From NCBI GenBank assembly GCA_002361595.1, contig DETJ01000039.1, positions 960-64,959 on the forward strand: a stretch of DNA of 64,000 nt, in the 5' to 3' direction. A model generated the notes under the pieces. The model saw only the letters and a program-made list of their open reading frames with translations, did no database searches and was not told the origin of the DNA. The position numbers and the translations under genes are program-made. Each line of letters begins with the position of its first letter. Within the stretch, counting starts at the first letter, position 1. The DNA is from Patescibacteria group bacterium UBA3291. Lineage in GTDB: Bacteria > Patescibacteriota > Gracilibacteria > Absconditabacterales > Absconditicoccaceae. Positions 13,432-56,668 of this stretch are shown here, piece by piece.

Positions 13432-14226
13432 ATGAAACAGTATTTAGATTTATTACGAAGGATTATGTCCGAAGGTACGGACAAATCTGATCGTACTGGT
13501 ACAGGTACAAGGAGTATTTTTGGACACCAGATGAGATTTGATTTATCTGAAGGATTTCCTCTTCTGACCACAAAAAAGGTTCATCTGAAGTCTATTATCT
13601 ACGAGCTCTTGTGGTTTATTGCTGGCGACACAAATGTGAAATACTTGCAAGACCATGGTGTAACTATTTGGAACGAATGGGCTGATGAAGACGGAGATCT
13701 TGGTCCTGTATACGGCCATCAGTGGCGCAGTTGGCCAGCTCCAGATGGAAGATCTATTGATCAGCTATCCCAAGTTATCGAGACAATCAAGAAGAATCCT
13801 GACTCTCGACGTATGCTTGTAACCGCATGGAATCCTGGCGAAGTAGATGATATGGCTTTACCGCCGTGTCACTGTCTCTTCCAATTCTATGTAGCTAATG
13901 GAAGATTGTCCTGTCAGCTTTATCAACGCAGTGCTGATACATTCCTGGGCGTTCCGTTCAACATTGCATCTTACGCACTCCTAACGATGATGATTGCACA
14001 AGTATGTGGCTATGAACCTGGTGAATTTATTCACACGACAGGAGATACTCACATCTATCTCAACCACTTCGAGCAGGTTGCTACCCAGCTCTCTCGGGAA
14101 CCTCGTCCTCTTCCTCATATGAAGATCAATACAGATGTGAAGTCTATCTTCGACTTCAAGTATGAAGATTTCACTCTGGAGGGATATGATCCTTGGCCGG
14201 CAATCAAAGCACCTGTATCTGTGTAA
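13432..14226 (+). CDS. thyA: Thymidylate synthase (ThyA type)
   Basis: [12 protein letters not shown]...DRTGTGT...LWFIAGDTN...[13 protein letters not shown]...[12 protein letters not shown]...[11 protein letters not shown]...[21 protein letters not shown]. It is intact in the standard code. The track start (TTG at 13402) is replaced by the ATG at 13432. Confidence 0.95.
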
Positions 14227-25226: not shown

Positions 25227-25232
25227 TATTAT

Positions 25233-26097: not shown

Positions 26098-26179
26098 TTT
26101 TGTTAATATAAAAAAATGTGAAGTGATGCTTAAATATTTCAATATAAATCAGACTTTTTAATTATTATTTTGTAAAAAA

Positions 26180-26509: not shown

Positions 26510-26535
26510 ATTTATTTAGATTTTAAGTAAAAAAT

Positions 26536-26566
26536 AAGACTAACTTTGAATAGTTAGTCTTTTTAT
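26536..26566 (+). terminator. Rho-independent terminator, possibly bidirectional with the convergent FemAB gene
   Basis: 10-bp stem AAGACTAACT/AGTTAGTCTT followed by TTTT. Confidence 0.75.
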
Positions 26567-26576
26567 TAGTTATAAA

Positions 26577-29229: not shown

Positions 29230-29811
29230 ATGGAAAGAAAAGATTATTTAGTTCTAGTGAATAAACAAAATAAACTTCCAGATAATTGGGAAGAAATATC
29301 TGAGCTTGTAGAAGTGAAAAATAGTTTTGGAAAATTTCTAAAAATAGAGAAAGAAACATTGGAAAAATTTAATGAACTAAGAAGAGTTTTATTGGCTGAA
29401 TGAGTAGATATTGAGCTTGATAGTGCATATCGTTCTTTTTCTATTCAGAATGAATTTTTTGAAAAATTTAAAGAAGAATATGGAGAAGAATATGCAAGTA
29501 ATTATGCTGCACCTGCAGGTTATTCTGAACATCATACATGATTAGCAATTGATATATGTATCAAAAAAGAAAACTGAGAAATTATTTCAGAAAATCATGA
29601 AATGATAGTTGAGTTATGAGTTTTTGATAGAGTTCATAAAAAAATGGTAGATTATTGATTTATAGTTAGATATCCTGATGGAAAAGATAGTATTACATGA
29701 TATAGTTATGAACCTCGACATTTAAGATATATATGAGATGCTGATATAGCCAAAGAAATTATGGAAAATTGATTAACTTTAGAGGAATATTTGAATAAAA
29801 CTTGAAAATAA
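29230..29811 (+). CDS. VanY-type D-alanyl-D-alanine carboxypeptidase (peptidase M15B), cytoplasmic-looking copy
   Basis: LVLVNKQNKLPDNW, SAYRS, YSEHHTGLAIDI, GFIVRYPDGKDSITGYSYEP-CGA-HLRYIG. Confidence 0.85.
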
Positions 29812-29847: not shown

Positions 29848-30585
29848 ATGAAAAAATCATTATTATTAAGTTTTGTTTTATTATCAGGAGTATTAATGGT
29901 TGCGTGTGAAAATAAAACTGATCAAAATTTAGAAGATACTCAGACTTGTTCTTTATGAGAATCAGTATGTGATCTTACGTGAACTAGTATTAATTCAAAT
30001 GAAAATCAGACTGGTATAGATTATTTAGTTTTGGTAAATAAAGAGAATAAATTACCAGATGACTGGGAATCTAAGCTAGAATTAGTAGAAGTACAAAATG
30101 CTTATGGTGAAACAATCAGAGTAGAAAAAGAAGCTTTGGAAAAATATAATGAACTAAAAGCTGATTTAGCGAAAGAATGAATAGAAATAGAACTGGATAG
30201 TGTATATCGTTCAGTAGAGAAACAACAGCAAGTGTGGGATGAATTTGAACAGGAATATGGACTCGAATATACTCAGAAATATGTAGCAGTTCCATGATAT
30301 TCAGAGCATCATACAGCTTTGGCTCTAGATATAGTTATTAGAAAAGATGGAGTGTTAATTTATGAGAATGATGATATGATAGCTGAGCCTGAGATATTTG
30401 CAAAGATTCATGCTAAATTAGCAGATTATGGATTTATACTTAGATATTTGGAATGAAAAGAAGATATTACATGATATGGATATGAACCTCGACATTTGAG
30501 ATATATATGAGATGCTGATATAGCCAAAGAAATAATGGAAAATTGATTAACTTTAGAAGAATATTTGAATAAAACTTGAAAATAA
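29848..30585 (+). CDS. VanY-type D-alanyl-D-alanine carboxypeptidase, lipoprotein paralog
   Basis: MKKSLLLSFVLLSGVLMVAC lipobox, then the same M15B motifs. The last 100 nt or so are nearly identical to the upstream copy. Confidence 0.85.
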
Positions 30586-31278: not shown

Positions 31279-31797
31279 ATGGAAATTCAAAAATCTGTAC
31301 AAGAATATTTAGATTGAGCTGATAAAAATTGAGCTTGAGAGACTGTAAAAATCGGAGATAATATAACAGTTGACTATATTTGACGTTTAGAAGATGGGAC
31401 AGTATTTGATACAAGTGTAGAATCAGTAGCTAAAGCATGCTGAAAATATAATGAAGCTAGAGATTATACTGAGTGATTAACTTTTGGGGTGTGAGCTGGA
31501 CAGATGATTAAATGATTCGACGAATGAGTAGTAGGTATGAAAGTATGACAAACAAAGACAGTTCAATTTGGACCAGAAAAATGATATGGACAGCGTAGAG
31601 AAGATTATATCATGACTTATTCTGCTGAAGAAGTATGAGATTTGAGTAAATTTACTGAATGACAAAGAGTTTATCTATGAATATGAGCTGCAGCATTGAT
31701 TACGAAAGTGACAGATAAAGAATTGACTATAGATTTAAATCATGAATTAGCAGGTAAAGATTTGATATTTGATATAACTATTAAATCGATTAATTAA
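31279..31797 (+). CDS. FKBP-type peptidyl-prolyl isomerase, paralog without signal peptide
   Basis: [17 protein letters not shown]; GAGQMIKGFDEGVVGMKVGQTK. The last 60 nt are identical to the upstream paralog. Confidence 0.85.
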
Positions 31798-34320: not shown

Positions 34321-34360
34321 TAGGTATGAAATATTTTTAGTCTATTTCATGGGAAGGAAA

Positions 34361-37300
34361 ATGAAAAAGTTAGTGAATGTAGTTACACTCGTTGTAATGG
34401 TGAGTGTGAACACGATGACGCCTTTTACTTATGCGTTTGCGCAGTATGATGAGCCTGTGTATTCACAGGAAGTCGTAGAAGTATCGGATGATACGGCAAA
34501 TTCCCAGATATCTGGGCAAGCTACGGCTGGCGACTCATCTAGTGAAACGTGATATGAAGAAAATATCCAGGGTGAATCACCTGTGGATTTTTCTCTAAAT
34601 ACGGAATCACAAACTAGCGCAGAAGTGGATTCTTTGGCTTCGTCTCAGAATGATGGAGAAGTACAAGATTCTTCGCTACGCTCAGAATGACAAGCGTGAT
34701 GAGAAGAAGATTCTTCGACTTTGGCTCAGGATGGCGAGACACCTATGGATTCCTCACATTCGTTCGAAATGACGGATGAGCAAGAAGAGGAGGAAGAATT
34801 GGATTTCACTTGAAAGACCGTAGCAGCTGTGACTAAAATGCTATGATGAAACTGGGAAACTGATTCTGATGGATATGCTGAGGCATTAGGAATCGAAAAT
34901 TATCAAGGTTATCCAGAACAAAATGAAATAATCAGAAATTATATGGTAACTAATAAAACCCTTCCTGAAAAATGACAAAACACACAAGATTTTCATCCAG
35001 CTCAGCTGGACAAGCTTCGTTCAGAATGACAGGTATGAAGTGAATGAGATACACAAATTTCAGATGATGAGGATGGAGAAGATGATGAAGATCCTTTGCC
35101 TGAAGAATGAGACACACAAGATTCTCAGCTAGCTGAGTGAACTTCGCTAGACGCTCAGAATGACATCGAACAGCCAGAATGAGAAGATGAAATGTGATTC
35201 TTCGATGAATTATGAGAAGGAATTCAGAATTTGTTTAATAAAATTAGATATTTCTTCACAGATGAAGAAAATGAATCATATATAATATATAGTGAAGATG
35301 ATAATGATATATGAACTATTACATTAAAAGATCCAGAAACTGCGGCTACTATCACTATTATGGATAGAAATCTATGAGCTGAAAAAGTAAATGACTATGG
35401 ATATTATTTTCAATGGTGAAATAATCACGGAGTAGAAGAAGTAAATTCTACAAACAAAACAACTATTAAAGCTATTTATGATGATAGTTATTATGCTAAA
35501 TGATATGATGGTAATGGTTTATTTATAGTATGAGCCAAAGATTACCGAGAAAATGGAAATCATTATAATAATTTATGGTGATGAGATTTGAAAGAACAAT
35601 ACAAGCAGGCAGCATGTCCTGCATGATACCATGTACCAACTGCCAAAGAATGGAATCAGTTGATGAGTATATGGTGAAAGATTCATACACAGGATGTATC
35701 TGTGGATGAAGAATGACAAAATGTTTCACAGACTAGATATACAGCAAATTCATCAGAAACTAAGATAGCTTCATTTAAAGATCAGGCACAGCAATGTGAA
35801 GAATCTGACACTCAATGTGTGGATGAAGACAATTTTAGTGATATAATCAATATTTTATCATCAGAACTCAGACTTCCTTTAGCTGGAGGTTATGATGAAG
35901 ATGGTAAATATTATGATGAATGATGAATTTATTGGACATCTACAGCCAGAGATGGAGAAAAAGCATTAATTTTCGATATTGATGCTTATTTTGGCATTAA
36001 TGGAGATGACAATTTGGGTTATAAAGCTCAAGGTCATAATATTAGATGTTTCCAGAATGTGACAGAGCGAGATGCTGGAGAAGATATTCAAGATTCTCAG
36101 CAAACTGAGCAAGCTCAGCAAGCTGAGTGAACTTCAGCTGATGCCTCTGAATGACAGGGTGATACAAACAACAACCCGGGTTCAGCCTCAATGACTGACC
36201 AGGATTGAAATGGTGAACAGGATGAGAATGAAGTAGAACCCGGGTTGAATGTGGAAAATTCTTCAGAATGACAAGCTGGAGATGATGAACAAGCTAAAAC
36301 AGATTCTAATATATCTGTTTTAGATTATCTTTTTCATGAGGGAGTCGGTGACTCGGCTTCCTCTCCTTTCCCAGGAGATGAAGGGGATAATTTAGAACAA
36401 AGTTTTACATGAGATGACACACAAGATTCTCAGCTAGCTGAGTGAACTTCTCTAGACGCTCAGAATGACGATGTGCAGGTAGAACTTGACAAAGCACGAG
36501 CAACACTCAATGTAGAACCAATTACAAAAGCTGAAAGGTACAACAGAGTAACGGTAAATGTAGAAGCTCCAGCTGGAACTTTCCCTCAAGGAACTTATGC
36601 AAACATCAGACCAATTGTATCTACAGTCAGACTAGATGAAATCAAAGGACAGATTTCAGAGGAAGATAACACAGTATCAGAAAACTCTGAAGTAGTAGCT
36701 TTTGATATTACATTCATGTACAAATTGAGTGATGGTACAGAGGTAGAAGTGCAGCCTAAAGAAAACACAGTAAAGGTGGAATTTAATTATGAGGATAATG
36801 ATAATCTTTCAAAAGCTGACGAAAATGACTCTCAGGAAGTAAAGATTTTCCACTTGGATAATAAAGATGAGAATGGTGAAAAAGTAGATAGATGAGAAGA
36901 AAAAGTAGTAGATGTGACAAATAAACAGGAAAGTGCAGAAGATGGTATTGTAGTAGCGGATGCTGAAAGTTTCTCAATCTATGTACTTACTTTAAGTGAT
37001 AATTCACATACTTTAACTCTTTATCCAAATTGAGGTACTTTTACAAATAATAATATAATTATAACATGACCATGTGATCAAGAAAATGATCCATCATGTT
37101 CTGGAACAATCACTGTTGATGGTAACTGAGTAGTAGAAGAACCTGTGGTTACAAAAACTAATTATAATTTTGCTGGATGGTATACAAGTACGGATGGTGG
37201 TACAACATTATCTGATACGGCTTTTGATTTTGATACTCCAATTACAGATGATATTACACTTTATGCTAAATGGACAGATTATGTGATTACCTTTGATACA

Positions 37301-40300
37301 GATGGTGGTAGTGATGTAGATCCTATATTTGTAAATGATGGGGATACAGCTACTAGACCAAAAGATCCTACTAAAACATGAAATTATATGTTCTTATGAT
37401 GGTTTGATGCTGCATCGTGAGGAAATAGATTTGAATTTGAAGATAATCTTATTACTTCAGATAAGATTCTTTATGCTCACTGGGCTGAATTTGAGAAGTT
37501 GAATTTCACATGAGTGGTAAAAATTTCAGGATATCCAGATGGAATGGCAACAGTTACGATTATGGATAGAAATTTATGAGCAACTGAAGCATGAATATGA
37601 ACAACAGCCTCAGCAGATTCATATGGATATCTTTATGAATACTGAAATAATCATGGATTTTCACTTGTAAATAAAAGAATTCCTAATGAATATATAAGAA
37701 CAGACCAAGTAGATGTAACGGATTATTCGTGGGAGAATCCATTCTATTCTAAATATTATATAAAAAGGAGTGATAACTGGATGACATCATCTTCTAATAA
37801 AAATTTGTGGTGATGAGCAAATGATATTTTGACAAACTATTATTGAGAAAATATAGATCCTTCTCGTAGACAATGACCATGTCCAGAATGATATCATATA
37901 CCATCTGTGAAAGAATGGTATGATGTAGTTGATATTTTATTTCAGAAGTATGATATTGATGAAAAAACGGATAAAAATTATAAATATCCTGAACAAGTTT
38001 GAAAAAATCCTAAAACTGTTAATGAAGTGAAATATATGTTATGAGATTATTATGATGATATAGAACAGGATTTGAATTTAGTATATTTCTGACGTATAAA
38101 AGAGAATGAAGTCGCAGTTGGTAGAGATGCAAGTTCTGATGATCCGAGAGCTCCATACTGGACATCAAGTGATCATAATAGTAAAGCATTTATTATAGAG
38201 TTTTGATTAAAAGCTAAAGCACTAAGTTTATGATGATTTGAAGAACCTAAACCAAGTGGTTATTGAGTTCGTTGTTTCAAGGATGTACCAGATTATTGAA
38301 TGGTAAAATTTGAATTAAATGGATGAAATTGGGATGTAGAGGATGAATATTTGGCATATAAAAGAGCTGAAGGAATTGAGTTACCATCTGAACAACCAGA
38401 AAAATATGCTTATAATTTTGATGGATGGTATACAGATGATTGAACTTTTGAGGATGAAGTAGTCGATGGAAGATCATTAGATTCAAATGTGACTTTATAT
38501 GCTAAATATGAACCTAAAGATAAATATCTGATAAATTTTGTGGTTGAATGAGCAGCTAGAAGTAAATTGTTAATGGAATGAGAAATCCCTTCTTATGATA
38601 CAAGTTGGCCAGAGCCAGCTAAACCAGATCAGGGTGAATATTCTTATAGATTTGATGGTTGGAATGATGGAACTACAAAATATGACTTAGGTGAAGAATT
38701 ACCTGCTGTTACAGGTCCTGCTACATATACAGCAGTTTTTGAGCAATATATGGTAGATAGGCATAGAGTATCCTATGATATAGATGGAGATGGTCATGAA
38801 GATAATGTAGAGTATGTAAGTAAAGTAGAGGGTGAAAATATTATTACTTTACCAGTAGCTCCAACTAAAGAAGGATATGATTTTGCATGATGGAAAGCTG
38901 ATAATGAAGAAAATGCTAGAGAAGCTGAAAGTTCATATACAGTTACAGGAGATGTAGATTTTACAGCTCTGTGGACACCACATGATTATAGTATAGCGTA
39001 TGACTATGATGGATGAACAGTATCTCAGACTAATCCTACACATTATAATCTTGGTAATAATTCGGTAGATATACATTCTCCATCTAAATCAGGTTATAAA
39101 TTTGTATGATGGAAAGAATATTCTTGTAATGAATCTGATGTGGCTAATTGTCAGAATTGGACATTTGTAAGAGATGTGCTTGTATATGGAGATCCAACTT
39201 CTATTGTAATATGAGGAATAGGACATAAAAAATATGTGGCTCAATGGGTAGAAAATGAGGTGACATATTCAGTGATTTGGCTTGATGATAATCACTCTTA
39301 TATGGGTATTTCGAATGTGCCATTAAATACTATAGCCTCTACAATTACAAATATACCAAATACGGCTAAAGAAGCAGATGCTGAATATACTTATACTTTC
39401 CTTAACTGGACAAAGAAGAGTGGTTCTGATTTTGTAGATGTCGATCTGAGTCAAGAAACTATAACAGATAATATGATATATTATGCGAAATATCAAAAGA
39501 CTAAAAATAAATATTCAGTGACATTTGTAGGTGAGGATGAAACTACAGTTTTACAGGAATCTACTCAGTATGACTATGGAACAACATCAGAAAATATAAC
39601 TATACCTACTGCTCCAGCTAAGCAGTGATATACATTTGATGGATGGTTAAAGAAAATAGGTGATGGTGAATATTCATCTGAAGTGGTAGATATGTCTACA
39701 GAAGAAGTGCAGGCGAATGTAACATATAAAGCTCATTATAGTCCAATTACAGCTGAATATACAATTACATTTGTACTATGAAATGGAGAAAGTGATGTCG
39801 TAATAACTGGACATGAATGAGATTCTGTTATGGCACCAGCTAATCCTACTAGAAATGGATATACATTTGCTGGTTGGAGTCCAACTGTTCCAGCTACAAT
39901 GCCTGCTCATAATGATACAATTACAGCTCAATGGACAGCTAATCAATACACAGTAACATTAAATATAAATTATTGAGAAACTCCTGCAACAAGTGAAATA
40001 ACAGTAACATATGATGATACTTATGGAAACTGATGATTATCAAATCCTACGAGTAGAGCAGGATATACATTTGATGGATGGTATGATGCTGAAACTGAAT
40101 GAAATAAGGTTAAAGCTGATACAGTAGTATCTACAGCAGCTGATCATATTTTGTATGCACATTGGACAGCAGATCAGCATTCAATTACATATAATAATAC
40201 TAAGTGAGCAGAAAATACAAATCCTGCAACGTTTACTACAGATACACAGACTATTAGTCTGAATAATTTGTCAGTAGCTGGATATACATTTAATGGATGG

Positions 40301-43300
40301 TATGATGCTGAAACTGAGTGAAATAAAATAACTCAAATTGTACAGTGAACAACAAATGATGTAGTATTGTATGCTCATTGGACAGCAATACCATATAGTA
40401 TAATTTATACACAAGTGCCAGAAGGTTATGTTGCAACAACTTATAGTTATACGATAGAAAATTCATTTACTATTCCAAATCCTGCAAGTGTAGTATGACA
40501 AACTTTCAAAGGATGGAGAGAATATGTAAAAATTGGTGAAAATGAATGAGAACCAATATGGGAAGAACCTAATCCATGACAGATATATTATAATGCTAAT
40601 GGTATTACAATACAATCGTGAAATATTTGAGATAGAAAATATGAAGCTCAATGGGAAGTAAAAACATATACAGTATTTTGGGTAGATGAAGATTTAGAAA
40701 TTTTGGAGACAGATAATGATGTAAATCATGGAAGCCATCCACAATTTGATGAAACTACTCCAACTAAAACAGATACAGCCGAATGGGATTATGAATTTGA
40801 GACATGGACAAAAAATGGAGTAGATGTTGATATAACTACAGAAACTGTTACATCAAATGTAATATATAAAGCTAAATATTCAGAGACAAAGAAAGAATAT
40901 ACAATTACTTTCGTAAATGATGACAATTCACAATTATCAACTCATGATTATGAATATGGAACAGCTGCAGCTACTATACAGCAGCCTACGGCAACAAAGG
41001 ATTCTACAGCTCAGTATAGATATGAATTTGCAGGTTGGAATCCAGCTCTTGCTCCAGTCACAGGACCTCAGACATATAAGGCTACTTATAATGAAATTTT
41101 GAGACAATATGCAGTAACATTTGTAAATGAAGATGGATCTGATTTACAGTCTGCTACAATGTTTGACTATGATTCACATCCTATTTATAATGGTCCGACT
41201 CCTAAAAAAGTAGTAGATGGTGGTTTTAGTTATTCATTTGATGGATGGTTGAAGAAGGTATGAGATGGAGATTTTGGTACTGATGTTATCAGTGATTTAA
41301 CATCGGAAGAAATTAAGGATACAACAATTTATAAAGCTCATTATACTCAGAGTCTATTTACATATAATGTAACATTAAATCCAAATGGACAATGAAGTGT
41401 AGATCCTTCAATTATTGTTGTAACATATGGTAGTACATATGGTAATTATGATGGACAATCTCATGAAAAATTACCAGAACCTACATGAGATGGTTATGAT
41501 TTTGTATCATGGAATACACAATCAGATGGACAATGAACTACAATAACAGCATCTACATCGGTATGACTAAGTGCTAGAGATCAGATTCTTTATGCTCAGT
41601 GGACACCAAGTGATTATGATCTTGAATTTGTAGATGATAATGAGAGTACTCCATTAGTTCCAAAGACGACTTATACAATTGAAGATACTATAACACTTTC
41701 AGTTCCTACTAAATGAGGATACACATTTATTGGATGGAAAGAGTATGTAGATGGAGTTTATACTAGAGCATATTTAGCTAATGATCTTCCTCTTACTCTT
41801 CCAGCAGGAAATATTTGAGACAGAAAATATGTAGCTCAATGGAATCTGAATGGACATGTAGTAATATGGTTAGATGATGATCAAAGAGTTTTGGATATTG
41901 ATACAAATATACCAGATGAAACTTTGGTTACAGAAATAGAGCCAGCTGAACCTACTAAAGCTCAGGATGATCAATATACATATACATTTGATAAATGGTT
42001 AAAAGAGGTAATAGGTGGAAATCCAGCTGTAGTTCCAGATTGGGATCATGAGAGAGTAACAGCTGATGTGAAATATCAAGCCAGTTATCAACCTCATATT
42101 AGACAATATTCAGTAACATTTGTAGGTGAGAATGGTGAAACTGTTTTACAGCCAGCTGCATTATATGATTATGGAACAACAGCTGCTAATATCACTAAAC
42201 CAGCAGAACCTACTAAAGCAGCCACAGCTGCACATACATATACATTTGTATGATGGAAAGCAAATGGACAGTGAGAACCTATTCCTACCGTTAGCCTTCC
42301 AAATGTAACATGAAATGTGACATATTGGGCATCATTTACTGAAACTACAAATCAGTATGAAGTAACATTTGTAGATGAGAATGGTACTACTGTTTTGAAA
42401 GCAGCAACTCAGTATGATTATAATACACCAGCAGCTTTGATTGAGCAGCCAGCTACACCTACTAAGGCAGAGACACTTTCACACACATATACATTTGCTG
42501 GTTGGAATCCAGCTTTAGCAGATGTAACAGCAGATGCTACTTATACAGCTACTTATACATCCACTCCAAAGCAATATACTATTACACTTAATCCAGATGG
42601 TGGAGTCATTGAATGAGCAGCTACAACCAAAGAAGTAACATTTGGTTCTACTTATTGAGAATTGCCAACTCCTACGAAACTTGGATACACTTTTGGTGGA
42701 TGGTTTGATGCTGATGATACACAGCAACAAAACGAAATAACATCAGCTACAGTAGTGACGACAGATGCTATAAATCAGACACTTAAGGCTAAATGGACAG
42801 TACAAAAATTTAATATTAGATATCTTGAAGATGATAGACAAACTCCAGTGACTGTGTCTGATCCTATGACAATATATACAGTAAAAGATTCTATAGTAAT
42901 TAAAAATCCTACAAAAGAATGACATACATTTATTGGATGGAAAGAGTGTGTAGGAAATGATTGTTCTACAGCATATTTGAAGGATGGAAGTAGTTCAATT
43001 AAAATTCCAGCATGAAAAACATGAGATAGAGATTATTTAGCTATATGGAATGTACACTGACATGTAGTAATTTGGGGAGACTATAATGGTGTAGTTTTGG
43101 AAATAGATCCAAATGTAGATTATGGAGATCCAGTTTCATATGATGTAGAGGATGAAGATCACAATCCAAAATATCCATCTAGAGAAGATACAGCTGAATT
43201 TGATTATGAATTTATAGGATGGACAGACTGAGACAAACATTTTTATCCTATAAATGGAACTCCTGCTATTCCAACAATGTGAGATGCTGATATAACCTAT

Positions 43301-46300
43301 ACAGCTACTTATTCTGAAACAACAAAAAAATATACTATTACATTTGTAGATGCAGATGATACGGAATTGTCAAGTAAAGATTATGAATATGGAACAGCTG
43401 CTAGTGTTATAGTTAAACCAGCATTTAATATACCATCTCCAACTTCACAGTGTGCAGAATATCAGGGGGCATGGGATAAAGAGATAGTAGAAGTGACATG
43501 AGATGAAACATATAAGGCAGAGTATACATGTAAAACTCCTGCTACATATACTATTACATGGAAAAACTATGATGGAAGAATTTTGGAGACAGATGAAAAT
43601 GTTCCATACTGAACATTGCCAGATTATGATGAAGATGCTCACTGAGTACCTACAAAAGATTTGCATGATGGAAAAACATATCTTTTTGAGACTTGGGATC
43701 CTGCTGTTGATGTAGTTACAAAAGATGAAATTTATACAGCAACTTTCACTGCCAATCCAAATGCGTATGGAGTAACATTCAATCCTAAGTGATGAATAGT
43801 AAATCCAAACTATAAGGTAGTAATAAATGGAGAAGCTTATGGAGATTTACCAACTCCTACAAAAGCTGGTTATACATTTGATGGATGGTATTCAGATGAT
43901 GGAACATTCGCAAATGAAGTAAAATCTACAGATACATATACTTTGACAACAAATCAGACTCTTTATGCTAAGTGGAATATAGTAAGTTATAATATTACAT
44001 ATCAAAATGTTGAAGCTAGTTATATAGAAACAGCTCCAGTTACATATACAGTTGAATCTGATGATATTGAAATTCCAAATCCAACTAGAGATGGATATAC
44101 ATTTAAGGCATGGAAAGAATATGTAAAAAATGGTAATTATGTACCATGAGGGGATGAACCAGAGTGGATATTCGAAAGAGACATACTTAGAGATGGAGAT
44201 AATGATATTACTTTACCTGTGTGAAATACATGAGATAGAGAATTTAGGGCTCAATGGGATATAAATCGTTATAAAGTAGTATTTAAGAATTATGATGATA
44301 CTATATTAGATGTGCAGATGTTGGATTATGGAACGCCAGTTACAGCTCCAGCTAATCCTAGCAAACCTAATTCATCTAATGGTCAATTTAGATATGAATT
44401 TGCAGGATGGAAAGCAAATTGAGAATGAGATTTAATTCCTAAAACATCCACTCTTCCAGTAGCGACAGAAGATGTAGATTATATAGCTCAGTTTAATGAG
44501 ATTACTAGAAAATATACAGTTACATTCCAAAATTATGATGAAACTGAATTACAGTCAAGCGATGTAAATTATGGAACAGCTCCAGTTTATGCAGGGGAGA
44601 CTCCAACTAAAGCGAGTACATCACAGTATTCATACACATTTAATGGATGGACAGATGGAACTAGTGAATATGCAAAGGATGCTACTCTTCCAGATGTATC
44701 GTGAGAAACTACTTATACAGCAGTATTTACTCAATCTCCAGTAAAATATACAGTAACATTTAAAGATTGGAATGATGAAATTATTAGTGCTAAAGAATAT
44801 GGTTATGGAACACATGTTGCAGATATAGTTAAACCAGCAGATCCTACTAGAGATGGATATACATTTGCAGGTTGGAGTGAAATCCCAGAAACAATGCCAG
44901 CTCAAGATGTAACAGTAACAGCTACTTATACTATTAATTCATATATAGTTACATTTGATTCTGATGGAGGAAGTGCGGTAGAAGCTGAGACACTAGAATA
45001 TAATACACCAGTTTCTAGACCTACAGATCCTACTAAGGAAGGATATACATTCTCTAAATGGCAAAAAGTAGATGGACAGACTCTTTCAGATTATGATTTT
45101 GCTACACCAGTAACAGCAGATATTACATTAAAGGCAATCTGGACAAAGAATACTTATACAGTAGTATATAAGGATGGAAATAATGATATAACAATTCCAG
45201 ATGCTACTACTAGTTATACAATTACAGATCAAATCACAATTCCAAATCCAGAAAAGGATGGATATACATTTATAGCATGGGAGGAATATGTATGTACAAA
45301 AACTATTAAATCTGAATGTACTTCATCTGATCGAAAGCATACTAGAGATATTCTAAAGTCAGGAGAATCAATTACAATTCCAGCATGAAATATCTGACAT
45401 AGAGAGTATAGAGCACAGTGGAATATAAATAATTATGAAGTAATATTCCAGAATTATGATAGAAGTATCTTGAAAGTACAGAATTTAAATTATGGAGCTT
45501 CTGTAACTGCTCCAGCTGATCCTACTAAACCTGCAGATGCTGAGAAAGTGTATATATTTGATGGTTGGCAAGTAGATGGAGCTGGAGATGTTATTGCGAC
45601 AGCAGATCTTCCAACTGTGTCATGAGATGTACATTATGTAGCACATTTTACAGAATCAGCAAATCAACATACAATTACGTTCAAGAATGATGATGGAACT
45701 GTTTTACAGTCTGGAAAAGTAACTTATAATGAGGCTCCAGTTTATGCATGACAAACTCCAACTAAAGCAAATACAGCACAGTATTCATATACATTCGCTG
45801 GATGGACTAATGGAACTACTGAATATTGAAAAGATGATACACTTCCAGCTGTAACATGAGAAGCTATTTATACAGCAATTTATACTTCAACTGTAAATGA
45901 ATATACAATTACATGGAAATCAGATGCTGATACAACTATTGATACTACGACAGTAGCTTATGGACAAATGCCAACTCATGCTATACCAACTAAAAATGGA
46001 TTTACATTTGATGGTTGGGATCCTGCAGTAGCATTTGTAACATGACCAGCTACTTATGTTGCTACATGGAGAGAATATGAATTGCATTCTTTCTACACAA
46101 AGTGAGGTGATCAGTTTGCTGTAGCATTATATAAAGATGATAAATCATTTGATATTTCGGCTACAGAGCAGGTAAATGGAGGTATAAATGATAGAGCATT
46201 AGCACAATTCTTATTATGAGCTGATGCCGTTGCAGATTTAACAGATGAAGAAGTTAGTGAATTATTAAATAACACACAATTTGAAATTAAAGATATTTCA

Positions 46301-49300
46301 GATTTATGATGAGAAGTATTATTCTTATGATTTACTAATTCAGAAGACAAACCACAGACTAAATGATACTGTTCAGATGCAGGATGTGATTATTTCTCAA
46401 GTTTAGATTCTGATTTGAAAGTGAATGATGCAGTTAGAACTAAATGAATGAATTTAACAAAGGTACAGAAACCATCATGGGTAGATGAACCAGTTAAAAA
46501 TAATAATAAATATAAAGAAGTAAGAGATGCTTCAAACAATTTGAAATGATTTGTAGTATTAGTAAATGATGGATATCTATATGTTCCAGTAATGAAATAT
46601 ACAGTTACATGGGAAAATGCAAATACAACATTGGAGACAGATCAGAATGTTCCATATTCAGCTACTCCAACTTATAATGGAGCTGAGCCAACTAAAGCAA
46701 GAGATGATCAATATACATATACATTTAAATGATGGAGTGATGGAACTGTTTCATATGCAAAGGATGCTACTCTTCCATGAGTATCTTGAAATGTAACATA
46801 TACAGCTGAATTCGATAATACAACAAATAAATATACAGTAAAATTTGTACAGGAAGATGGAATTACACCAATCAAAGTAGATGATAAAGATTCTAAAGAT
46901 TATGATTATGGTACATCTGCTGATGATATAATTGTGCCAGAAACTCCAGCTAAAACTGGATGGAGATTTACTGGATGGACTCCTGAAATTGAAGATGTAA
47001 CAGCAGATGCTACTTATAGAGCAACATATGCAATCAATCAATATACAATAACATTTGTATTAGGAAACGGAGATGAAAATGTTGAAATTACTCAGAATTA
47101 TGGAACAGAAATTACAGCACCAGCTGATTTTACAAGAGAAGGATATATATTTGATGGTTGGGATGTAGAAGTTCCTGAAACTATGCCGGCTGAGAATAAG
47201 ACTATTACAGCTAAGTGGACAGCTAATGAATATACAGTGACATTCAATTCTGGAGAATGAGCAACAGTAGATCCAGCAAGTAAAACAGTAACATTTGATT
47301 CTACTTACGGAGATTTACCTATTCCAACTAAAAAAGGATATACATTTAATGGATGGTATGATGATGAAACTGAATGAAATAAGGTTAAAGCTGATACAGT
47401 AGTATCTACAGCAGCTAATCATACATTATATGCTCAGTGGACAGCTAATGAGTACTCTGTAACATTTAATCCATGAGAATGAGCAACAGTAAATCCAACA
47501 AGTAAAACAGTAACATTTGATTCTGATTATGGAACTTTACCAACTCCAGTTAAAAATGGATATACATTTAATGGATGGTATACAGCTGCTACAGAATGAA
47601 CAAAGGTTGAATCTGATACAGTAGTATCTACAGCGAGTGATCATATATTATATGCTCAGTGGACTATCAATACATATACTATAACATATGATTATGCTGG
47701 ATGAACATTGTCAGACTGAGTTACTAATCCAAATGCATATAATGTGGAAGAATCAGTGAAAATATATGCTCCAAAGAAGACATGATATACATTCAAAGGA
47801 TGGAAAGAATATGTAAAATCTGGAGAAAATTCACGAACATTTGTTCAAGATATCTTTGAATCAGGAGAGTCTATAACAGTTTTAGCATGAGCTACATGAA
47901 ATAAGAAATATGAAGCTCAATGGATACAAAACACATATACTGTAACATTCTATCCTAATGGATGATCTAATATTGATTCTCAGAGTGTATTGTACAATGA
48001 TAAAATTGAAGTTACCACAGCATTACAAAATTTCGCAAATAGTAAAGAATGATATACTTTCAAGGGATGGTATACTACATCTAATTTCGCAGAATGAACT
48101 GAATTTGATTTTAATACTCCAGTGACAGACAGATTAAATCTTTATGCTAAATGGGATAAAGATCGATATACAATTACATATCAATTGAATGGTGGAGAAT
48201 TGACTAATCAATTAGCTCAATATAGTATAGATTTTGTCAGTTGGACAATTCTTAAACCAACTAAAGAATGATACACATTCAAGTGATGGTCTGATGTGGA
48301 AAGTGATATCGAATGAATGCCACAGACTATTTCATTGACTAATCAATGGTTTAGAGATCATGGATTCAAGAATAGAACATTTGTAGCTAATTGGGAGATT
48401 AATCATTATACAGTGAAGTATATGGATGGAGTAGATGAATTGGTAGATTTGAGAGATACAGTAGATCATGGAGATACTATTTCACCTTTACCAGTTCCAA
48501 CTAAAGAATGATATACATTCGTTAAATGGTATAAAGAACCAAAACTTATAAATGAATGGACAGCTACTGACACTGTTACAAGTGATACGACATTATATGC
48601 TAAATGGAGAAAGTATACAGTTTATGGACCATTCTATATGACAGATGGTACAAAATTTAATATAGCATTATTTGATGATGACGGAAGTATAGATATTGAA
48701 TGAACTAAAGCTAATAATGATCCATCAGTTATTACACCAGAGCGTGAACAAGGATTACGTTATTCACAGGCTGAAGTAGTTGAACTTCCAGAATTGTGAG
48801 ATGTATTATTTATCAAATCACCACGTCCTAGTGATCCAACAAAGTCAGATACTAAATGATTCTGTTCTACACAGGCATGTAATTATTTCGCATCAGAAGG
48901 TGCTGAAAGTGTAACACCAGAATTCAAATCTCAGGCAATGGACACAACTAATCCTGAATGACCATCATGGACAGATGGTGCTACTAATTATATGAAGTAT
49001 CATGAAGTCAGAGATGATAATGATAAATTAAAGTGATTCACAGTATTGGTAAGTAAGGGTAATGTGAATGGATATATTTATGTACCAGTTAAGCAATATG
49101 AAGTAATATTTGTGGATGAGAATGGAACTCCAGTTCTAAAACCTGTTACACAGTATGGTTATGGAACTCCAGCTGCTGATATTGTGAAACCAGCTGATCC
49201 TACTAAGGAGGCTACTCAGCAATATACATATACATTTGCCGGATGGAATCCATCAGTTGCAGAAGTAACAGAGGATGCTACTTATACTGCTACTTATACA

Positions 49301-52300
49301 TCAACTGTAAATCAGTATGAAGTAATATTTGTAGATGAAGATGGAACTGAGTTAAAAGAAGCTACAGCATATGATTATGAAACGGCTGCTGCAGATATAG
49401 TTAAACCAGCTGATCCAGAAAAGGAGGGATATACATTTGCAGGTTGGGATCCAGAAGTTGTAGAAGTAACAGATGATGCTATTTATACTGCTACATATAC
49501 AGCTAATTCATATTCAGTACATTTCGATAAGAATGATATAAAAGCTACATGAACTATGTCAGATCAGTCATTCACATATGATGAAGCAAGTAAAGCATTG
49601 ACAGCAAATACATTCTCTAAAGAAGGATATACATTTGCAGGTTGGGCTACTTCAAGTGATGGAGAGGTTGTTTATACAGATGGACAGTCAGTTCAGAATT
49701 TAACATCAGCAGAGGATGGTGTTGTAAATCTTTATGCTAAATGGACAGCTAATACTGATACACCATACATAGTAAAACACTGTAAACAGGATTTAGAAGA
49801 TGAAACTAAATTTGAAGATTGTGAATCTGAAGATAAAGAATGAACAACAGATACAGATACAGCAGCTGGAGCAAAGACATATGAATGATTTACAGCTCCA
49901 AGTGTGATTACACAGGAAAATATTGAATGAGATGGAAGTACAATTGTTGAAATAAGGTATACTAGAAATTCTTATACATTGAGTTATGAATATACAAATA
50001 CTCCAGAATCAACTATGCCAACTTTGCCAGCAGTTGAAACATATAAATTCTGAGCTTCTATTACATTGGCAGAAGTTCCATCAATGAATGGATATACATT
50101 TGAATGATGGCAGGATTTCCCTGAAGGAAATACAATGCCTGCTAATGATGTAACTGTAAAATGAACATGGACACCAGTAAAATATACAGTATCAGTTTTG
50201 ACTAAAACAGATGCTGAAGATTCAGCATTATGATGAGTTGTTTATGGTGCTGGAGACTATGATTATAAGAGTGAAGTTACATTGTTTGCTATACCAAATG
50301 AATGATATGACTTTATTGGATGGACATGGGAATGACAGGATGAATTAGTAAAACCACAAGTTAAGATTATTCAATCATTATTAGCTAATCAAACGCTTAC
50401 AGCACATTTCCAGACTAGTGAACATACTGTAGAATTTGATAGTGATTGATGAACAGCTAGACCTACACAGACTATTAAACATTGATTGAAGGTAATAGAA
50501 CCTGAAGATCCGACTAAAGAATGATATACATTCAATGGATGGTATAATGGAAATGATGAATATAATTTTGATACTCCAGTAACTTCAGATCTTCAATTAA
50601 AAGCACATTGGACAATCAATCAATATACAATCACGTTTGATACAGATGGTGGAACTGAAATAGCTCCAATTACTCAAGATTATAATACAGCTGTAACAGC
50701 ACCAGCAGATCCTACTAAAGATGGATACACATTTGATGGTTGGGATAAGGATATCCCAGCTATAATGCCAGCTGAAGATATGACAATTACTGCTCAATGG
50801 AGTATTGCTCATTATGGAGTAAATTTAGTAGATGATGATCACTCTACACTTAGTCTTATAAGTCATGAAAGTGGAGAAGATATTCAGTATGGAGAAACTG
50901 TTAAAGTTAGTGTTTCATTTGATGATCGTTATCAGTTAGATTCTATATCTTCAAATGAAGTAACTCTAACTAAAGAATCAGATTCTGTATATAGTTTTGT
51001 AATGCCTGCATGATGAGTTGTAGTTACATTAAAATCAAAACCAGTAGAATATAGAATAAAATATAACTGGATAGGATGAGCTTTGGATGATGGAGAAGAG
51101 AATCCAGATACATATAATATAGAAAATTATGATAATCTAGTATTATATAATCCAAGTAAACAGTGATCTATATTTAAATGATGGCAATTGTTTGGTGGAG
51201 AATTCTTTGATGGAGAATGATCACATACAACACAAGTAGAAATTGATTCAGATGAAATTTGAGAGCCTCAGACATTTAGTGCAGTATGGGATGAAGAGGT
51301 TTATCCTATTACATATCATCTATGAGATGAAATACTTGGTATATATTGGGTAAAATATGATAGTTATGCTAATTATATTTCTCAAACTAGAGAATGATAT
51401 GCATTTGATGCGTGGTATACTGATTCAGATTTTGAACTTGAACATAAATACAATTTCTGAAAAGTGACATGACCACTTCATTTATATGCAAGATGGATAG
51501 CATCAGAGCAGACATATCATGTATATCATAAATACTTAAAAGCTGATGGTTCGACAGAAAGAACTCAACATGTACAGTATGCTGTTCATACAGATGATTA
51601 TATTCCTGAAGTACCAAGAAATGAAGATGCAGTGAATGATGGATATTTATTGCCAGAAGTACAGCATATAAGAATTAAAGCATGATCAGATAATGAGGTT
51701 ATTTATATATACGAGAGAGCGCCATTTACTATTACTTATAAGGATGGTAATAAACAAATAGATAAAAAAACAATACTTTATGGAGCAGATATTCCGACTA
51801 TGGTAGCTCCAGTGAAAGAATGATATACATTTGATGATTGGTATTCTGATTCAGAATTGACTCAACCTTATGAGATTCCGGAAACAATGCCGGCTGACAA
51901 TATTGTAGTGTATGCTAAATATGATATAAATAAACATACAGTTAGATATATGGACGGTAATAGAGTACTTCAAAAATTTGATAATGTAGAATATGGATCA
52001 GATTTCCCTACTCTTTCAGAGAATCCTTCAAAGGATGGATATGATTTCGTAGGTTGGGAAACTATTCCAGCTACAATGCCAGATCGTGATGTAGATATTC
52101 AGTCGATATGGGATGCACAGATATTTACTGTTACATTTAAGCATGAAGATGGAACAACTCTTCAGTCAAGTAGTGTAGCATATGGACAGAATCCAAGTTA
52201 TAATGGAGTGACTCCAACTAAACCAGCAACATTAGAGCATATGTATACATTTGTATGATGGAATGATGAAACGACTACTTATGCTCCAGAACAGACTCTT

Positions 52301-55300
52301 CCAGCTGTTTCATGAGATACTGTGTATACAGCAGTATTTGATGAGGATACAAGTAAGTATACAGTAACATTTGTGGATGAGGATGGTGAAACTGTTTTGA
52401 AAGCGACAACTCGATATGATTATCAAACGTCTGTTGCAGATATAATTAAACCAACTAATCCAACTAAAGCGGCTACAGCTGAATATACATATACATTTGG
52501 TGGATGGGATCCAGCTCTTGCTCCAGTGACACAAAATGTAACATATATGGCTACTTATACTCAGACTCCAAATACATATACAATTACATTTAATACTGAT
52601 TGATGAACTCCGAGAAGTTCGATTACAGCAGCATATGGAACTGATATAACAGAGCAGTTGCCAGCAGATCCAGAAAAACAGTGACATCATTTTGATGGAT
52701 GGGATAAGGTTATTCCAGCTACAATGCCATCACATGATATGACTATCACAGCTCAATGGACAAAGTATTATTATAATTTAACATTTAATGCTGCATCTCA
52801 TTCTAAAGTAACTAAGAAAACAACTTCTCAGGATGGTACTTATGCATATAATGATGAAGTAGAAGTCTCTGTTTCAGTAGATGATGGGTATAGATTGAGT
52901 AATATTACAGCTGTAGCTACTACAGCACAGTGAGATCAGGAAGTTAGGCTATATGATCAGTGAAACGGAGTATACTCATTCTTTATGCCAGCTAATCCAG
53001 TGGTTATTTCAACAGAGGTAGAGGCTATTGATTATGGAATTGAATATGATTTGGCAGGTGGAAGTGTGGATGATGAATATCCAGATAGTTATGATATGGA
53101 TCATTTAACACTGACATTGAAGAATCCTATTAGAGAATGATATACATTCAAATGATGGAAAGATGAAAAATGAAGAAATATTAATGCAGGAAATACTACA
53201 ACTACTATTAATATAAATTCATCTGATAAATCAAGTAAGCTATATACAGCACAGTGGGATGTTATTGAATATAATGTGAAATATTATGTGGATGGAATTA
53301 TTAAATGAAATGAAAAAGTTTCGCATAATGAGCAGGCTGATATAACTACTTATAGACCAGAGGTACAAGAATGATATTATTTTGATGGATGGTATTTAGA
53401 TTCACAGAAAGAAAATAGATATACATTGGATGGTGTAGTTGCAGATATTGAATTATATGGATTTGTAATTGCATCAGATCAGTGATATCTAGTAAAGCAT
53501 AGATATGAAAAATTGGATGGATGATATGATGAGATGCAGATTCCTGTAACAGATGGTGTAGTGACTGATCAAATAGTTTCACCAGAATTTGAACCTAAAG
53601 ATTGATTTAAAAATCCTAGTGCTAGAAAGGTAATACAAATTAGGCCTGGATGACTATTGACAAATGAAGTAATCTATGAATATACTAGAGAGAGTTATCA
53701 GGTGACTTATAAAAATGATGGTGAAGATGATCAATATAGAATGGTTAAATTTGAAGATTATATTCCAGTCTTAACTGTTTCATCGAAAACTGGACAAACA
53801 TTCAAAGGATGGTATAAGGTTGAAAATGATGAAGTTACAGATGAAAAATTGACAAATCTGACTACTATGTCTACATCTCCTGTAGTATATAAAGCTGTAT
53901 GGGATGATGAAGAATATACTATTACATTTAATGTGGATGGAGGTAGTGTAATCAATCCAATTACTGGAAAATACTGAGATCCTATTTCAGTGGATGCACC
54001 TACTAAACCTGGATATACATTCGCATGATGGGATCCTGCACTTCCAGACAAGATGCCTGCTGAAAACATGATAGCTACAGCTCAGTGGACTATTAATCAG
54101 CATAAAGTTACATTGACAGATTCAGATCATGTAACATTGAATTATTTAACAGTTCCTGATGCTTGAAATAAATATGATTATGCATCTACAGTATCAGTGA
54201 TAGCACATGTAGATGATGGATATGATTATACTGTGGATAGTGAAGAAGTAGATTTGATTTACAAGTGAGATGGAGTATATCAATTCAAAATGCCAGATAC
54301 TCCAGTAACGATTAGAGCTACAGCTACGGCTAAAACTTATGATATTGATTATATATTAGATGGATGAAGTCTGCCACAGTGAGTATCTAATCCAGTACAT
54401 TATGGTCCTACAGCTCTTACATTAACATTGAATAATCCTGATAGAGATGGATATACATTCAAATGATGGAAAGATGAAACATGAAGATTATTCTATGATG
54501 AAGATTCAGATACTACACAGGTTACAATTAACAATTCTCCATTAGTAGATAAAACATATACAGCGCAATGGGAAGTTAATACCTATCTAGTTAGATTTGA
54601 GATGGATGGACATACTGTAAATCAGCAAGTAATTACTTATAGATGACATGCAAATTATGTAAATCAGTCTAAGGATGGTTATGAATTCCCAGGATGGTAT
54701 ACAGATCCAGATTTTGCACAGTGAACTGAATATAATTTCAATACACCAATCACATCAGATTTGGTATTATATGGAAAGTTTGTCGCTAGTGAGAGTGAAT
54801 ATATAGTTATCCATAAATATTTAAATGTAGATGGAATTACATATAAACCATATGTTGTACATCATACAGATGTTAAGACAGATGATTTTATAGCAGAAGT
54901 TCCTTTTGCACCGAGAGATTGATTTGTAAATCCATCTCCAAAGAGCATAAAGGTTATGGCTAATGCGGAGAATATTGTAGAATATGTTTATCAGAGAGAT
55001 TACTTCGATATTGTTTATGATGTAAATGGTTGAACTCCAGAAGTAGCTACTCAGACAATAATGTTTGGTACTAAGATTCCAGTTCCTGAAGCTCCAACTA
55101 AAGAATGATATACATTTAGATGATGGCAAAAACAGTGAACTACAGAAATTCTGAATGATAATACAATTCTCAATGATGCTCAGACAGTGACTTATGTAGC
55201 ACAGTGGTGAGAAAATGAATATACAATTACATTTGATACAGATGGATGAAGTGCAATAGATCCTATTACTCAGGATTATGGTACAGCTATTACAGTTCCA

Positions 55301-56668
55301 GCAGATCCAACTAAAGATGGATATACATTTGCAGGTTGGGTTCCAGCAATTCCAGCTACAATGCCATTGTGAGGATTGACTGTAAAAGCTCAATGGACAG
55401 CAAATAAGTATACAATTACATTTAATACAGATGGTGGAACTGAAATTGCTCCAATTACTCAGGATTATGATACAGAGATTACACCACCAGCTAATCCTAC
55501 TAAAGAATGATATACATTTGCTGGATGGAATCCTGCACTTCCAGCTAAGATGCCATTGAATGGATTGACTGTAAAAGCTCAATGGTCACTCGGTGGATTT
55601 ACGATTACATTTGATACAGATGGATGAAGTGCAATAGATCCTATTACTCAGGATTATGATACAGATGTAGTTGCACCAGCAGATCCGACTAAAGAATGAT
55701 ATACATTTGCATGATGGGATCCTGCACTTCCAGCTAAGATGCCTGCTGAAAATATGACTATTAAGGCTCAATGGACAGTTAATCAATATACAATTACATT
55801 TGATACAAATGGATGAAGTGCTATCGATCCAATTACTCAGGATTATGGTACACCTCTAATTGTCCCAAATCCTACTAAACCTGGATATACATTTAAGTGA
55901 TGGGATCCTGCACTCCCTGCTACGGTTCCTGCTGGAGATATCGTTGTAGTAGCTCAATGGGAAAAATCATGAGGAAGTAGCTCTGGAGGTGGAGGATGAG
56001 GTGGATGATCATCTAGAAGATCAGAAACTCCACAAGAGAAGGATGACAAAAAATCTGAAGAGAATATGCATGGTTCAGCAGATGATGAAGTAATCCAGAA
56101 TGAAGAAGTAGATAATTGAGATGCTGCTGAAGAATTAGTTATTGAGCCAGAAGCTTTATCTGCATATGAATGGGCTAGGAAATATGATATTACGACTATG
56201 AGTCCAGTTGAAAATGCAGATCCTGATGGATATGTACTTAGATGACATTTGGCAAAGATGGTTGTAAATTATATGGTGAATGTACTTTGAAGAGAAGTGC
56301 CATATGATGTACCGTATGAATGTGTAGCATGGAATGATGATCCATCAATTTGGGAGTCTGATGAGATTAGAGATTATGCAACAAAGTCTTGTGCATTATG
56401 AGTGATGTGAATACAAATGTGGAATAATGAATTTAAGCCAAATGATATAGTAACTAGAGCTGAATTTGGAACAGTGGTATCTAGAATACTATGGTGAGAT
56501 AAATATAATTCTTCGAATACTAAATCAAGATATCGATATACATTACATTTACGTGCTTTGAAGAAAGAGTGAATCATGACTCAAATAACTAGACCAATGA
56601 AATGGTTGGAAATTAGAAAATGGGTATGGGTAGTTATGATGAGGACACAAGAATTCTTGAATAAATAA
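34361..56668 (+). CDS. Giant secreted surface protein (about 7435 aa): signal peptide, acidic linkers, two Fibrobacter-succinogenes-type paralogous (FISUMP) domains, dozens of Listeria-Bacteroides repeats (Flg_new type), MucBP-like modules and an SLH-like C-terminus
   Basis: All 18 track ORFs checked between 36473 and 53977 on the + strand are in frame with 34361. Hand translation of about 5 kb (34361..39300) and of the C-terminus shows only TGA interruptions. The signal peptide is [27 protein letters not shown]. The recurring unit is P.KEGYTF.GW......FDF.TP.T.D.TLYAKW. The stop is TAA at 56666. Confidence 0.85.
34627..34774 (+). repeat. Four tandem REP-like nucleotide units embedded in the coding sequence of the giant gene
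   Basis: Units at 34627..34653, 34666..34691, 34708..34734 and 34747..34774 match the intergenic units at 24163 and 34038. They are translated as [27 protein letters not shown] and DSSHSFEMT. Confidence 0.7.
35320..36060 (+). other. FISUMP-type domain 1 of the giant protein
   Basis: [47 protein letters not shown] and GHNIRCFQN. Confidence 0.7.
37540..38285 (+). other. FISUMP-type domain 2 of the giant protein
   Basis: [47 protein letters not shown] and GYGVRCFKD. Confidence 0.7.
46078..46596 (+). other. Unassigned insert module, copy A, within the repeat array
   Basis: [13 protein letters not shown] ... GEVLFLGF ... [15 protein letters not shown] ... PSWVDE ... [28 protein letters not shown]. 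Confidence 0.6.
48614..49093 (+). other. Unassigned insert module, copy B
   Basis: [14 protein letters not shown] ... GDVLFIKS ... [15 protein letters not shown] ... PSWTDG ... [32 protein letters not shown]. Confidence 0.6.
56150..56665 (+). other. SLH-like cell-wall-binding C-terminal region of the giant protein
   Basis: After a GGGGGGGG/Ser spacer: [12 protein letters not shown]...[18 protein letters not shown] ... [15 protein letters not shown]...[20 protein letters not shown]. This follows the SLH-type pattern W...GI..G....F.P...ITRAE. Confidence 0.5.

Follow-up and report, generated by a model that had tools for sequence, protein, structure and literature searches.

Probable reading of CGA and CGG as tryptophan codons in the native genes of an uncultured Absconditabacteria (SR1) bacterium

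Introduction

The window analyzed here, a stretch of 64,000 nucleotides from contig DETJ01000039.1 (assembly GCA_002361595.1), carries a giant gene for a predicted secreted repeat protein, other genes native to the same organism, and a foreign-type gene for the thymidylate synthase ThyA (thyA). A preliminary description of the giant gene had proposed, from its internal repeats, that the codon CGA stands for tryptophan. The proposal is followed here by codon-level comparison of the giant gene with its own paralogs and with orthologs, and by similar comparison of the other native genes and of thyA. In short, CGA and CGG (together CGR) are probably tryptophan codons in the native genes, in addition to the use of TGA for glycine, and thyA is the sole part of the pattern that this does not explain. 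Coordinates are collected in Table 1.

Results

The giant gene is read through TGA

With TAA and TAG as the only stops, the open reading frame (ORF) of the giant gene runs from 34184 to 56668 (7,494 codons), with a first ATG at 34349, and it contains 229 TGA, 154 TGG and eight CGA codons. The product has a signal-peptide-like N-terminus, two FISUMP domains and dozens of Listeria-Bacteroides (Flg_new) repeats. The FISUMP label of the preliminary description is right, since Pfam PF09603 (Fib_succ_major) matches two stretches of the protein with 63.8 bits (cut-off 33.9). PF09479 (Flg_new) reaches up to 421 bits (cut-off 27), PF18998 is also matched, and a C-terminal match to SLH (PF00395) is weak, at 17.5 bits and under the cut-off of 20.8.

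The G+C content of the window is ~30% overall and 0.25-0.35 along its length. ORFs of at least 150 amino acids cover 11% of the window if TAA, TAG and TGA are all stops, and the window is densely coding if only TAA and TAG are. TGA accounts for 4.2% of the codons of the window, which is too frequent for tryptophan, and TGA together with GGN amounts to ~7% glycine. In related contigs, GGA codons of the window stand opposite TGA in 227 cases and opposite GGA in 210, and TGA codons of the window are aligned with TGA, GGA and GGT but not with TGG. Where RumA, another protein encoded in the window, has TGA codons, 72 standard-code RumA sequences most often carry glycine, and tryptophan is outside their five commonest residues. 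Given the exchange with GGA and GGT, the glycine columns of RumA and the codon frequency, TGA is a glycine sense codon here.

Codon usage was counted on genes trimmed to the first ATG. The arginine codons of the native genes are AGA (199), CGT (57), AGG (27) and CGC (8), and only three CGG codons occur in the native genes of the window. Apart from the giant gene, the native genes use CGA, CGG and TGG at 39.6, 2.6 and 94 per 10,000 codons, such that CGR would make up 31% of tryptophan codons, and TGA 61% of glycine codons. The corresponding values for the giant gene are 10.8, 0 and 207 per 10,000, with CGR at 5% of tryptophan codons and TGA at 41% of glycine codons. In an S-layer-like gene (60563-63526, with a CGA at 61904), just 8 of the 74 glycine codons are TGA. 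The low use of reassigned codons in the giant and S-layer-like genes suggests that such codons are selected against in surface proteins that are abundant or rich in repeats. The CGA signal is thus at its most diluted in the giant gene, where the internal repeats exposed it.

Table 1. Genes and codons discussed in the text (positions in the window)
Feature	Position	Strand	Context	Comparison
Giant gene	34349..56668	+	7439 codons from first ATG	
CGA	35546..35548	+	FISUMP domain 1, [17 protein letters not shown]	Probably read as Trp; domain 2 paralog TGG 37778
CGA	36068..36070	+	NVTE-CGA-DAGED, after FISUMP domain 1	No paralog; ortholog L125 (62% amino acid identity) keeps CGA
CGA	36497..36499	+	ELDKA-CGA-ATLNV	No paralog; ortholog L126 keeps CGA
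TGG	37778..37780	+	FISUMP domain 2, [15 protein letters not shown]	Column paralogous to 35546
TGG	39158..39160	+	W-TFV-RDVL in extended repeat unit WKEY...W...RD.L	
TGG	44165..44167	+	Motif W-IFE-RDIL	
CGA	45332..45334	+	CGA-KHT-RDIL, context [26 protein letters not shown]	Probably read as Trp; best paralogs TGG (39158, 44165) or CGA (47834)
CGA	47834..47836	+	CGA-TFV-QDIF	Probably read as Trp; best paralogs TGG or CGA
CGA	48164..48166	+	AKWDKD-CGA-YTITY, variable Flg_new linker column	15 paralog cells T/Q/E/D/S/G/K, no W/R
CGA	52412..52414	+	KATT-CGA-YDYQT, variable repeat column	32 paralog cells D/N/Q/A/T and others, no W/R; L106 GCA
CGA	56534..56536	+	SRY-CGA-YTLHL, SLH-like C-terminal region	No paralog; TAT in L111, TTT in L124; aromatic expected
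M15 D-Ala-D-Ala carboxypeptidase 1	29230..29811	+	CGA 29716..29718, EP-CGA-HLRYIG	Same motif as second M15
M15 peptidase 2	29848..30585	+	CGA 30490..30492	At W of EPWH.RY.G
Conserved gene of unknown function (g07)	8520..9731	-	Six CGA	CGA 8958, 8886 and 8541 in ~80% identical domain
thyA, Bacteroidales type	13432..14226	+	CGA 13456, CGA 13807, CGG 14095	On Arg9, Arg126, Arg222

Paralogs and orthologs of the giant gene

The preliminary description compared six codons, three of the eight CGA (35546, 45332 and 47834) and three TGG (37778, 39158 and 44165). All six are in place, in one ORF frame and with matching contexts. The CGA of FISUMP domain 1 does stand where domain 2 has TGG before the motif LWGG, which itself requires that TGA be glycine (tta tgg tga tga). 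To quantify such matches, the residue of each codon was masked and the 35 amino acids on either side of it were searched by blastp against the giant protein. Among the CGA codons with any paralog, 3/5 have tryptophan in the best paralog, compared with 0/94 for AGA, AGG, CGT and CGC codons (Fisher p = 6.4e-5). The CGA rate is indistinguishable from that of the TGG codons themselves, 109/140 (Fisher p = 0.32). The claim that CGA is tryptophan inside the giant gene is therefore borne out, in that the paralogs put TGG opposite three CGA codons. The paralog signal is real and beyond chance, and by itself is supported by three codons. The CGA codons at 48164 and 52412 lie in variable columns and are uninformative for tryptophan versus arginine.

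Orthologs on other metagenome contigs (loci with L numbers) extend the comparison. In the N-terminal orthologs L125, L126 and L127, at 57-62% amino acid identity, CGA is kept at 35546, 36068 and 36497, and AGA is never seen at these three positions in giant-gene orthologs on other contigs. TGG stands at the column of 35546 in L124 and in two more FISUMP domains that L126 carries. Exchange also runs in the other direction: the tryptophan codons of LWGG, which are TGG in the window (35576 and 37808), are CGA in L124, and window TGG codons 56330 and 56492 are CGA in L111.

A homology search with FISUMP domain 1 returned five proteins only, and an exhaustive search with one of the five returned 1,733 matches, mostly apparent code-4 translations (such as 'NLWWW' and 'NLRWW'). 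These database matches were rejected as an anchor to the standard code, as W there may be TGG or TGA, and they still show alternation of W and 'R' at the LW column.

CGA and CGG in the other native genes

The two M15 peptidases of the window carry CGA within the same motif. In the second of them, the CGA column of EPWH.RY.G is tryptophan in 4/4 solved structures shown (4ox3, 4jid, 4mph and 4mur), which makes CGA 30490 the best anchor to standard-code proteins. The M15 genes form a tandem pair with identical C-terminal 30 amino acids, and a second tandem pair, of FKBP-type isomerases, follows at 30632-31255 and 31279-31797. Both pairs look like recent local duplications.

The gene designated g07 contains six CGA codons (Table 1). 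Its C-terminal 185 amino acids form a domain that is ~80% identical among thousands of metagenome proteins (4,828 database homologs), has no Pfam family and is apparently multi-copy on some contigs. Across 120 homologous proteins, W and 'R' are the only residues at the CGA and TGG columns of the conserved domain. At the codon level, in 39 metagenome loci with 47-50 copies, the three CGA columns hold CGA, CGG and TGG only, and the TGG columns hold TGG, CGA and CGG, with TAC and TAT also found in one column. At the seven AGA/AGG columns the codons are AGA, AGG, CGT and AAR, with AAT and CAA in a few cases, and CGA, CGG and TGG are absent.

The native genes as a whole were compared, column by column, with related metagenome contigs at 40-99.5% identity. 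Window CGA or CGG occupies 29 columns, of which 10 have TGG in relatives, 24 have CGA or CGG, and none has AGA, AGG, CGT or CGC. The reading of CGA proposed for the giant gene accordingly holds for native genes elsewhere in the window too. The 186 columns with AGA, AGG, CGT or CGC in the window show one of these codons in 156 cases, and neither TGG nor CGR in any. At the 57 TGG columns, TGG is found in 49, CGR in 20 and the four arginine codons in none. In Fisher tests on columns, the comparison of TGG gives p = 4e-10 and that of arginine codons p = 9e-20.

A whole-window codon matrix shows the same separation, although its cells are not independent, given that relatives share ancestry, and the per-column counts are safer: window CGA is aligned with CGA 118 times, TGG 66, CGG 6 and AGA or CGT 0, followed by scattered singles; window TGG with TGG 190, CGA 26 and CGG 18; and window AGA with AGA 533, AAA 57, AGG 42 and CGT 30. 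CGG in relatives is found in 18 cells opposite window TGG, in 6 opposite window CGA and in 0 opposite AGA, AGG, CGT or CGC. By these comparisons, CGA, CGG and TGG of the native genes are one synonymous class, disjoint from AGA, AGG, CGT and CGC. The preliminary description had named a spread of CGA over arginine and lysine columns as the pattern that would speak against its proposal; such a pattern is unseen in native genes and is seen only in the foreign thyA.

Source organism, RumA control and tRNA genes

In a search of 185,579 genomes, one per GTDB species, the best match to the RumA of the window was from 'Candidatus Absconditabacteria bacterium STCSWMC_146' at 62% identity. Next was an Absconditabacterales metagenome-assembled genome (MAG) at 42%, and Gracilibacteria reach 33%. 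With RumA as the sole marker, the source organism would be an uncultured member of the Absconditabacteria (SR1). No gene order is shared between the RumA-matched genomes and the window; the RumA gene of the window is without CGA.

The RumA sequences of other genomes also served as a control. In Absconditabacterales, CGR falls on a column that is tryptophan in 71/72 standard-code sequences. In Gracilibacteria (L009, MAG GFS_3055), a sister lineage that is also recoded at TGA, CGA and CGG are found at two columns with arginine in 72/72, so that CGR is still arginine in the L009 lineage. These opposite outcomes, on a tryptophan and on arginine columns, indicate that the method separates the two codes.

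The only tRNA genes of the window are tRNA-Ser(UGA) and tRNA-Cys(GCA), found by tRNA scan, and Rfam finds just these two. Scans of 47 related loci gave only tRNA-Cys, plus tRNA-Tyr and tRNA-Thr in one Peribacteria locus.

The foreign thyA

The G+C content of thyA is 43.6%, and its third-position G+C is 39%, compared with 9-26% in other genes. None of its 18 glycine codons is TGA. The protein is 87-92% identical to other ThyA, of which the named ones are Bacteroidales MAG proteins, and the Bacteroidales homologs adjoin DHFR in contigs of ~60% G+C. Composition and similarity together indicate that thyA is a foreign gene, most probably derived from Bacteroidales.

The same thyA is found in the same gene order in two other lineages (L128-L132 and L133). 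Differences at four-fold third positions are 0.31-0.37 for thyA and 0.16-0.42 for the flanks. Divergence that matches the flanks, together with the shared gene order, shows that thyA is no very recent arrival. No copy in any of the three lineages contains a TGA codon. In Bacteroidales thyA, codon 9 is AGA or AAG, codon 126 is CGG and codon 222 is CGC; the other arginine codons there are mostly CGG, and these are all AGA, CGT or CGC in the SR1 copies. The gene evolves as though translated by the standard code.

An assembly chimera was considered as the cause of the thyA pattern and rejected, as the same junctions are found in ENA ERZ28612952 (SAMN02144231), JGI 3300002641 and Logan SRR1206671, and also in diverged relatives. 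The window matches contigs of these ENA, JGI and Logan records with full identity.

At the same spot, L098 and L114 carry a different type of thyA (35-38% identity), also of foreign composition, and the site seems prone to gene replacement. In L098, on the opposite strand (plus-strand ~3644-4699), the gene has a TGA right after '...GAVSI', followed by five codons (G-MRII) to TAA. This TGA looks like a donor stop that is now read through as glycine.

Other features of the window

A gene on the minus strand at 9764-13261 divergently adjoins thyA in all relatives. Its product, of 1,165 amino acids with a Walker-A motif, is without precomputed Pfam matches and by eye resembles a type IV secretion coupling ATPase in the C-terminal half. 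A LepA/EF4-like gene (24197-24796, minus strand) ends at ~199 amino acids with the GTPase domain only, and an MscS channel gene lies directly after. The same short form is found in L098 at 94.5% identity, which argues that it is not a sequencing error. The region 24800-26576 (~1.8 kb, ~25% G+C) is without a convincing ORF in either code and gave neither an Rfam match nor a tRNA.

Discussion

Weighing of the readings

The comparisons of native genes are best accommodated if CGA and CGG are tryptophan and UGA is glycine, the derived code of Absconditabacteria, a reading to which a probability of about 0.9 is assigned. In the giant gene, all eight CGA codons would then be minority tryptophan codons. 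Such a code could have arisen by codon capture, in which low G+C first made CGA and CGG rare. If, as the literature indicates, bacteria of the Candidate Phyla Radiation (CPR) are without tRNA-Arg(ACG/ICG) and read CGU and CGC by tRNA-Arg(GCG), CGA and CGG would be left to tRNA(UCG) and tRNA(CCG), which may have gained tryptophan identity elements in this clade.

Several observations weigh against this reading. The relatives that fill the codon matrix share ancestry, as noted above. The CGA columns of Def (peptide deformylase), FemAB, LCP and GT2 are variable in solved homologs and support neither side. No tRNA with a UCG or CCG anticodon was found by tRNA scans in the window or related loci. 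The rule is contradicted by thyA, the CGR codons of which stand at Arg9, Arg126 and Arg222, positions that are arginine in 103, 120 and 120 of 120 homologs. Across the three lineages, position 126 is CGA, CGG and CGA, position 222 is CGG, CGC and CGA, and position 9 is CGA, AGA and AAC, such that position 9 shows exchange of CGR and AGA, and position 222 of CGR and CGC. These copies are as diverged as the flanking genes and under purifying selection (dN/dS, the ratio of nonsynonymous to synonymous change, is 0.07-0.11). Arg126 is one of four ligands of the phosphate of dUMP and is reported to be invariant, with few substitutions accepted (PMC6005164, PMC4304848).

The CGR codons at arginine positions of thyA, and the public gene calls that give R at CGA, might be taken to mean that CGA is still arginine, and that its matches to tryptophan are true replacements or chance. 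This is scarcely credible, as no CGR column (0/29) shows AGA, AGG, CGT or CGC, although AGA dominates among the arginine codons, and 10/29 show TGG. Within the giant gene, tryptophan in the best paralog separates its true arginine codons (0/94) from CGA (3/5), and a replacement of the invariant tryptophan of EPWH.RY.G by arginine in both M15 peptidases is implausible. Nor is there more to recommend a conversion of CGA to some other meaning. A different aromatic residue might be read into CGA 56534, which stands opposite TAT and TTT, and into the one TGG column that alternates with TAC and TAT; yet exchange of tyrosine and tryptophan is ordinary at some columns, and the commonest partners of CGA are CGA, TGG and CGG, with TGG as the specific partner. 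C-to-U editing of CGA to UGA, and hence to glycine, is rejected in view of the lack of GGN and TGA in CGA columns. Such other readings of CGA, taken together, are likewise close to negligible.

A more serious rival is ambiguous or context-dependent decoding, in which CGA and CGG are mainly tryptophan but with a useful fraction of arginine, which would let thyA keep CGR at an essential arginine. The thyA evidence set out above is all in its favor, and Shulgina and Eddy point out that it would take experiment to rule out ambiguous translation (PMC8629427). Even so, CGR is found in none of the 186 native arginine columns of any relative, which means that it is strongly avoided where arginine is needed, and CGA sits at invariant tryptophan sites such as that of EPWH. 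Even within thyA, CGR fills 5/6 cells at columns 126 and 222 and 0/15 at the other five CGN arginine columns, and AGA, CGT or CGC now stands in place of every donor-type CGG codon at 35, 107, 127, 166 and 225, which resembles a purge of CGR where arginine is required. With three CGR codons per gene, a minor arginine reading would also yield very little all-arginine ThyA. Ambiguous decoding is therefore judged improbable.

Two readings of thyA itself can be set side by side. The more likely is a strict code, under which CGR was purged at essential arginines and ThyA tolerates tryptophan at 9, 126 and 222. The less likely is that CGR yields some arginine, as the invariance of Arg126 and the exchange of CGR with AGA and CGC would suggest. 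More broadly, CGR may be read non-uniformly, or thyA may have been kept readable in the standard code; this is regarded as unlikely. It might reflect partial decoding as arginine, a ThyA that is tolerant of tryptophan at its phosphate-binding site or, more speculatively still, translation of thyA by a standard-code system such as that of a host cell, the bacterium being presumably epibiotic.

Relation to known codes

Reassignment of CGA and CGG to tryptophan in Absconditabacteria, on top of UGA as glycine, was predicted by Shulgina and Eddy (eLife 2021, PMC8629427), such that the finding here is an independent rediscovery of what has been known since 2021. The preliminary description is silent on this publication. 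In the same paper, CPR bacteria are described as lacking tRNA-Arg(ACG) and reading CGU and CGC via tRNA-Arg(GCG), and the tRNA(UCG) and tRNA(CCG) of Absconditabacteria as carrying tryptophan-type identity elements, namely G73 and no A20. Its authors call the reassignment a prediction and hold that in vivo reading and ambiguity can be decided by experiment only. Two 2026 papers restate the reassignment as established (PMC13092985 and bioRxiv 10.64898/2026.04.02.715157), and a search of the available literature found no experimental or proteomic confirmation of it.

The window resembles the published code in low G+C (~30%), TGA as glycine, arginine mostly as AGA, rare CGA and rarer CGG, and the presence of both CGA and CGG at conserved tryptophan columns, and nothing differs in kind. 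CGA is used at 39.6 per 10,000 in the native genes outside the giant gene, counted over whole genes, slightly more than the <37 per 10,000 of the paper, counted over aligned Pfam domains, measures that are not identical. The type of evidence also differs: codon-level comparison of orthologs and paralogs here, Pfam consensus columns and tRNAs in the paper.

NCBI translation table 25 (SR1 and Gracilibacteria) shares UGA as glycine and TAA and TAG as stops. However, it keeps CGA and CGG as arginine, which does not fit the native genes of the window, whereas Gracilibacteria RumA fits. In Anaerococcus and in the RFN20/Onthovivens Bacilli, as in the window, a rare CGN arginine codon has been captured by tryptophan at low G+C. 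There, however, only CGG changes, and CGA stays arginine via tRNA-Arg(ICG), with tRNA(UCG) absent (PMC8629427). In the window, reassignment concerns mainly CGA, which is expected if a tRNA(UCG) reads both codons (PMC8629427).

Consequences

No standard translation table gives correct gene calls for this organism: table 11 shatters every gene, and tables 4 and 25 give arginine where the cell very probably puts tryptophan, at about one third of the tryptophan codons outside the giant gene. The public translations (P0001-P0120, P0121-P0125) follow table 4, with W at each TGA, or give arginine at CGA and CGG. Database sequences of the clade thus carry systematic errors of W for G and of R for W. 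The codon-level comparisons in this window, in which the codon classes separate very cleanly, provide independent confirmation of one of the few bacterial sense-codon reassignments, in a lineage that the original paper does not name. As an exception, thyA provides a natural test for completeness or ambiguity of that reassignment.

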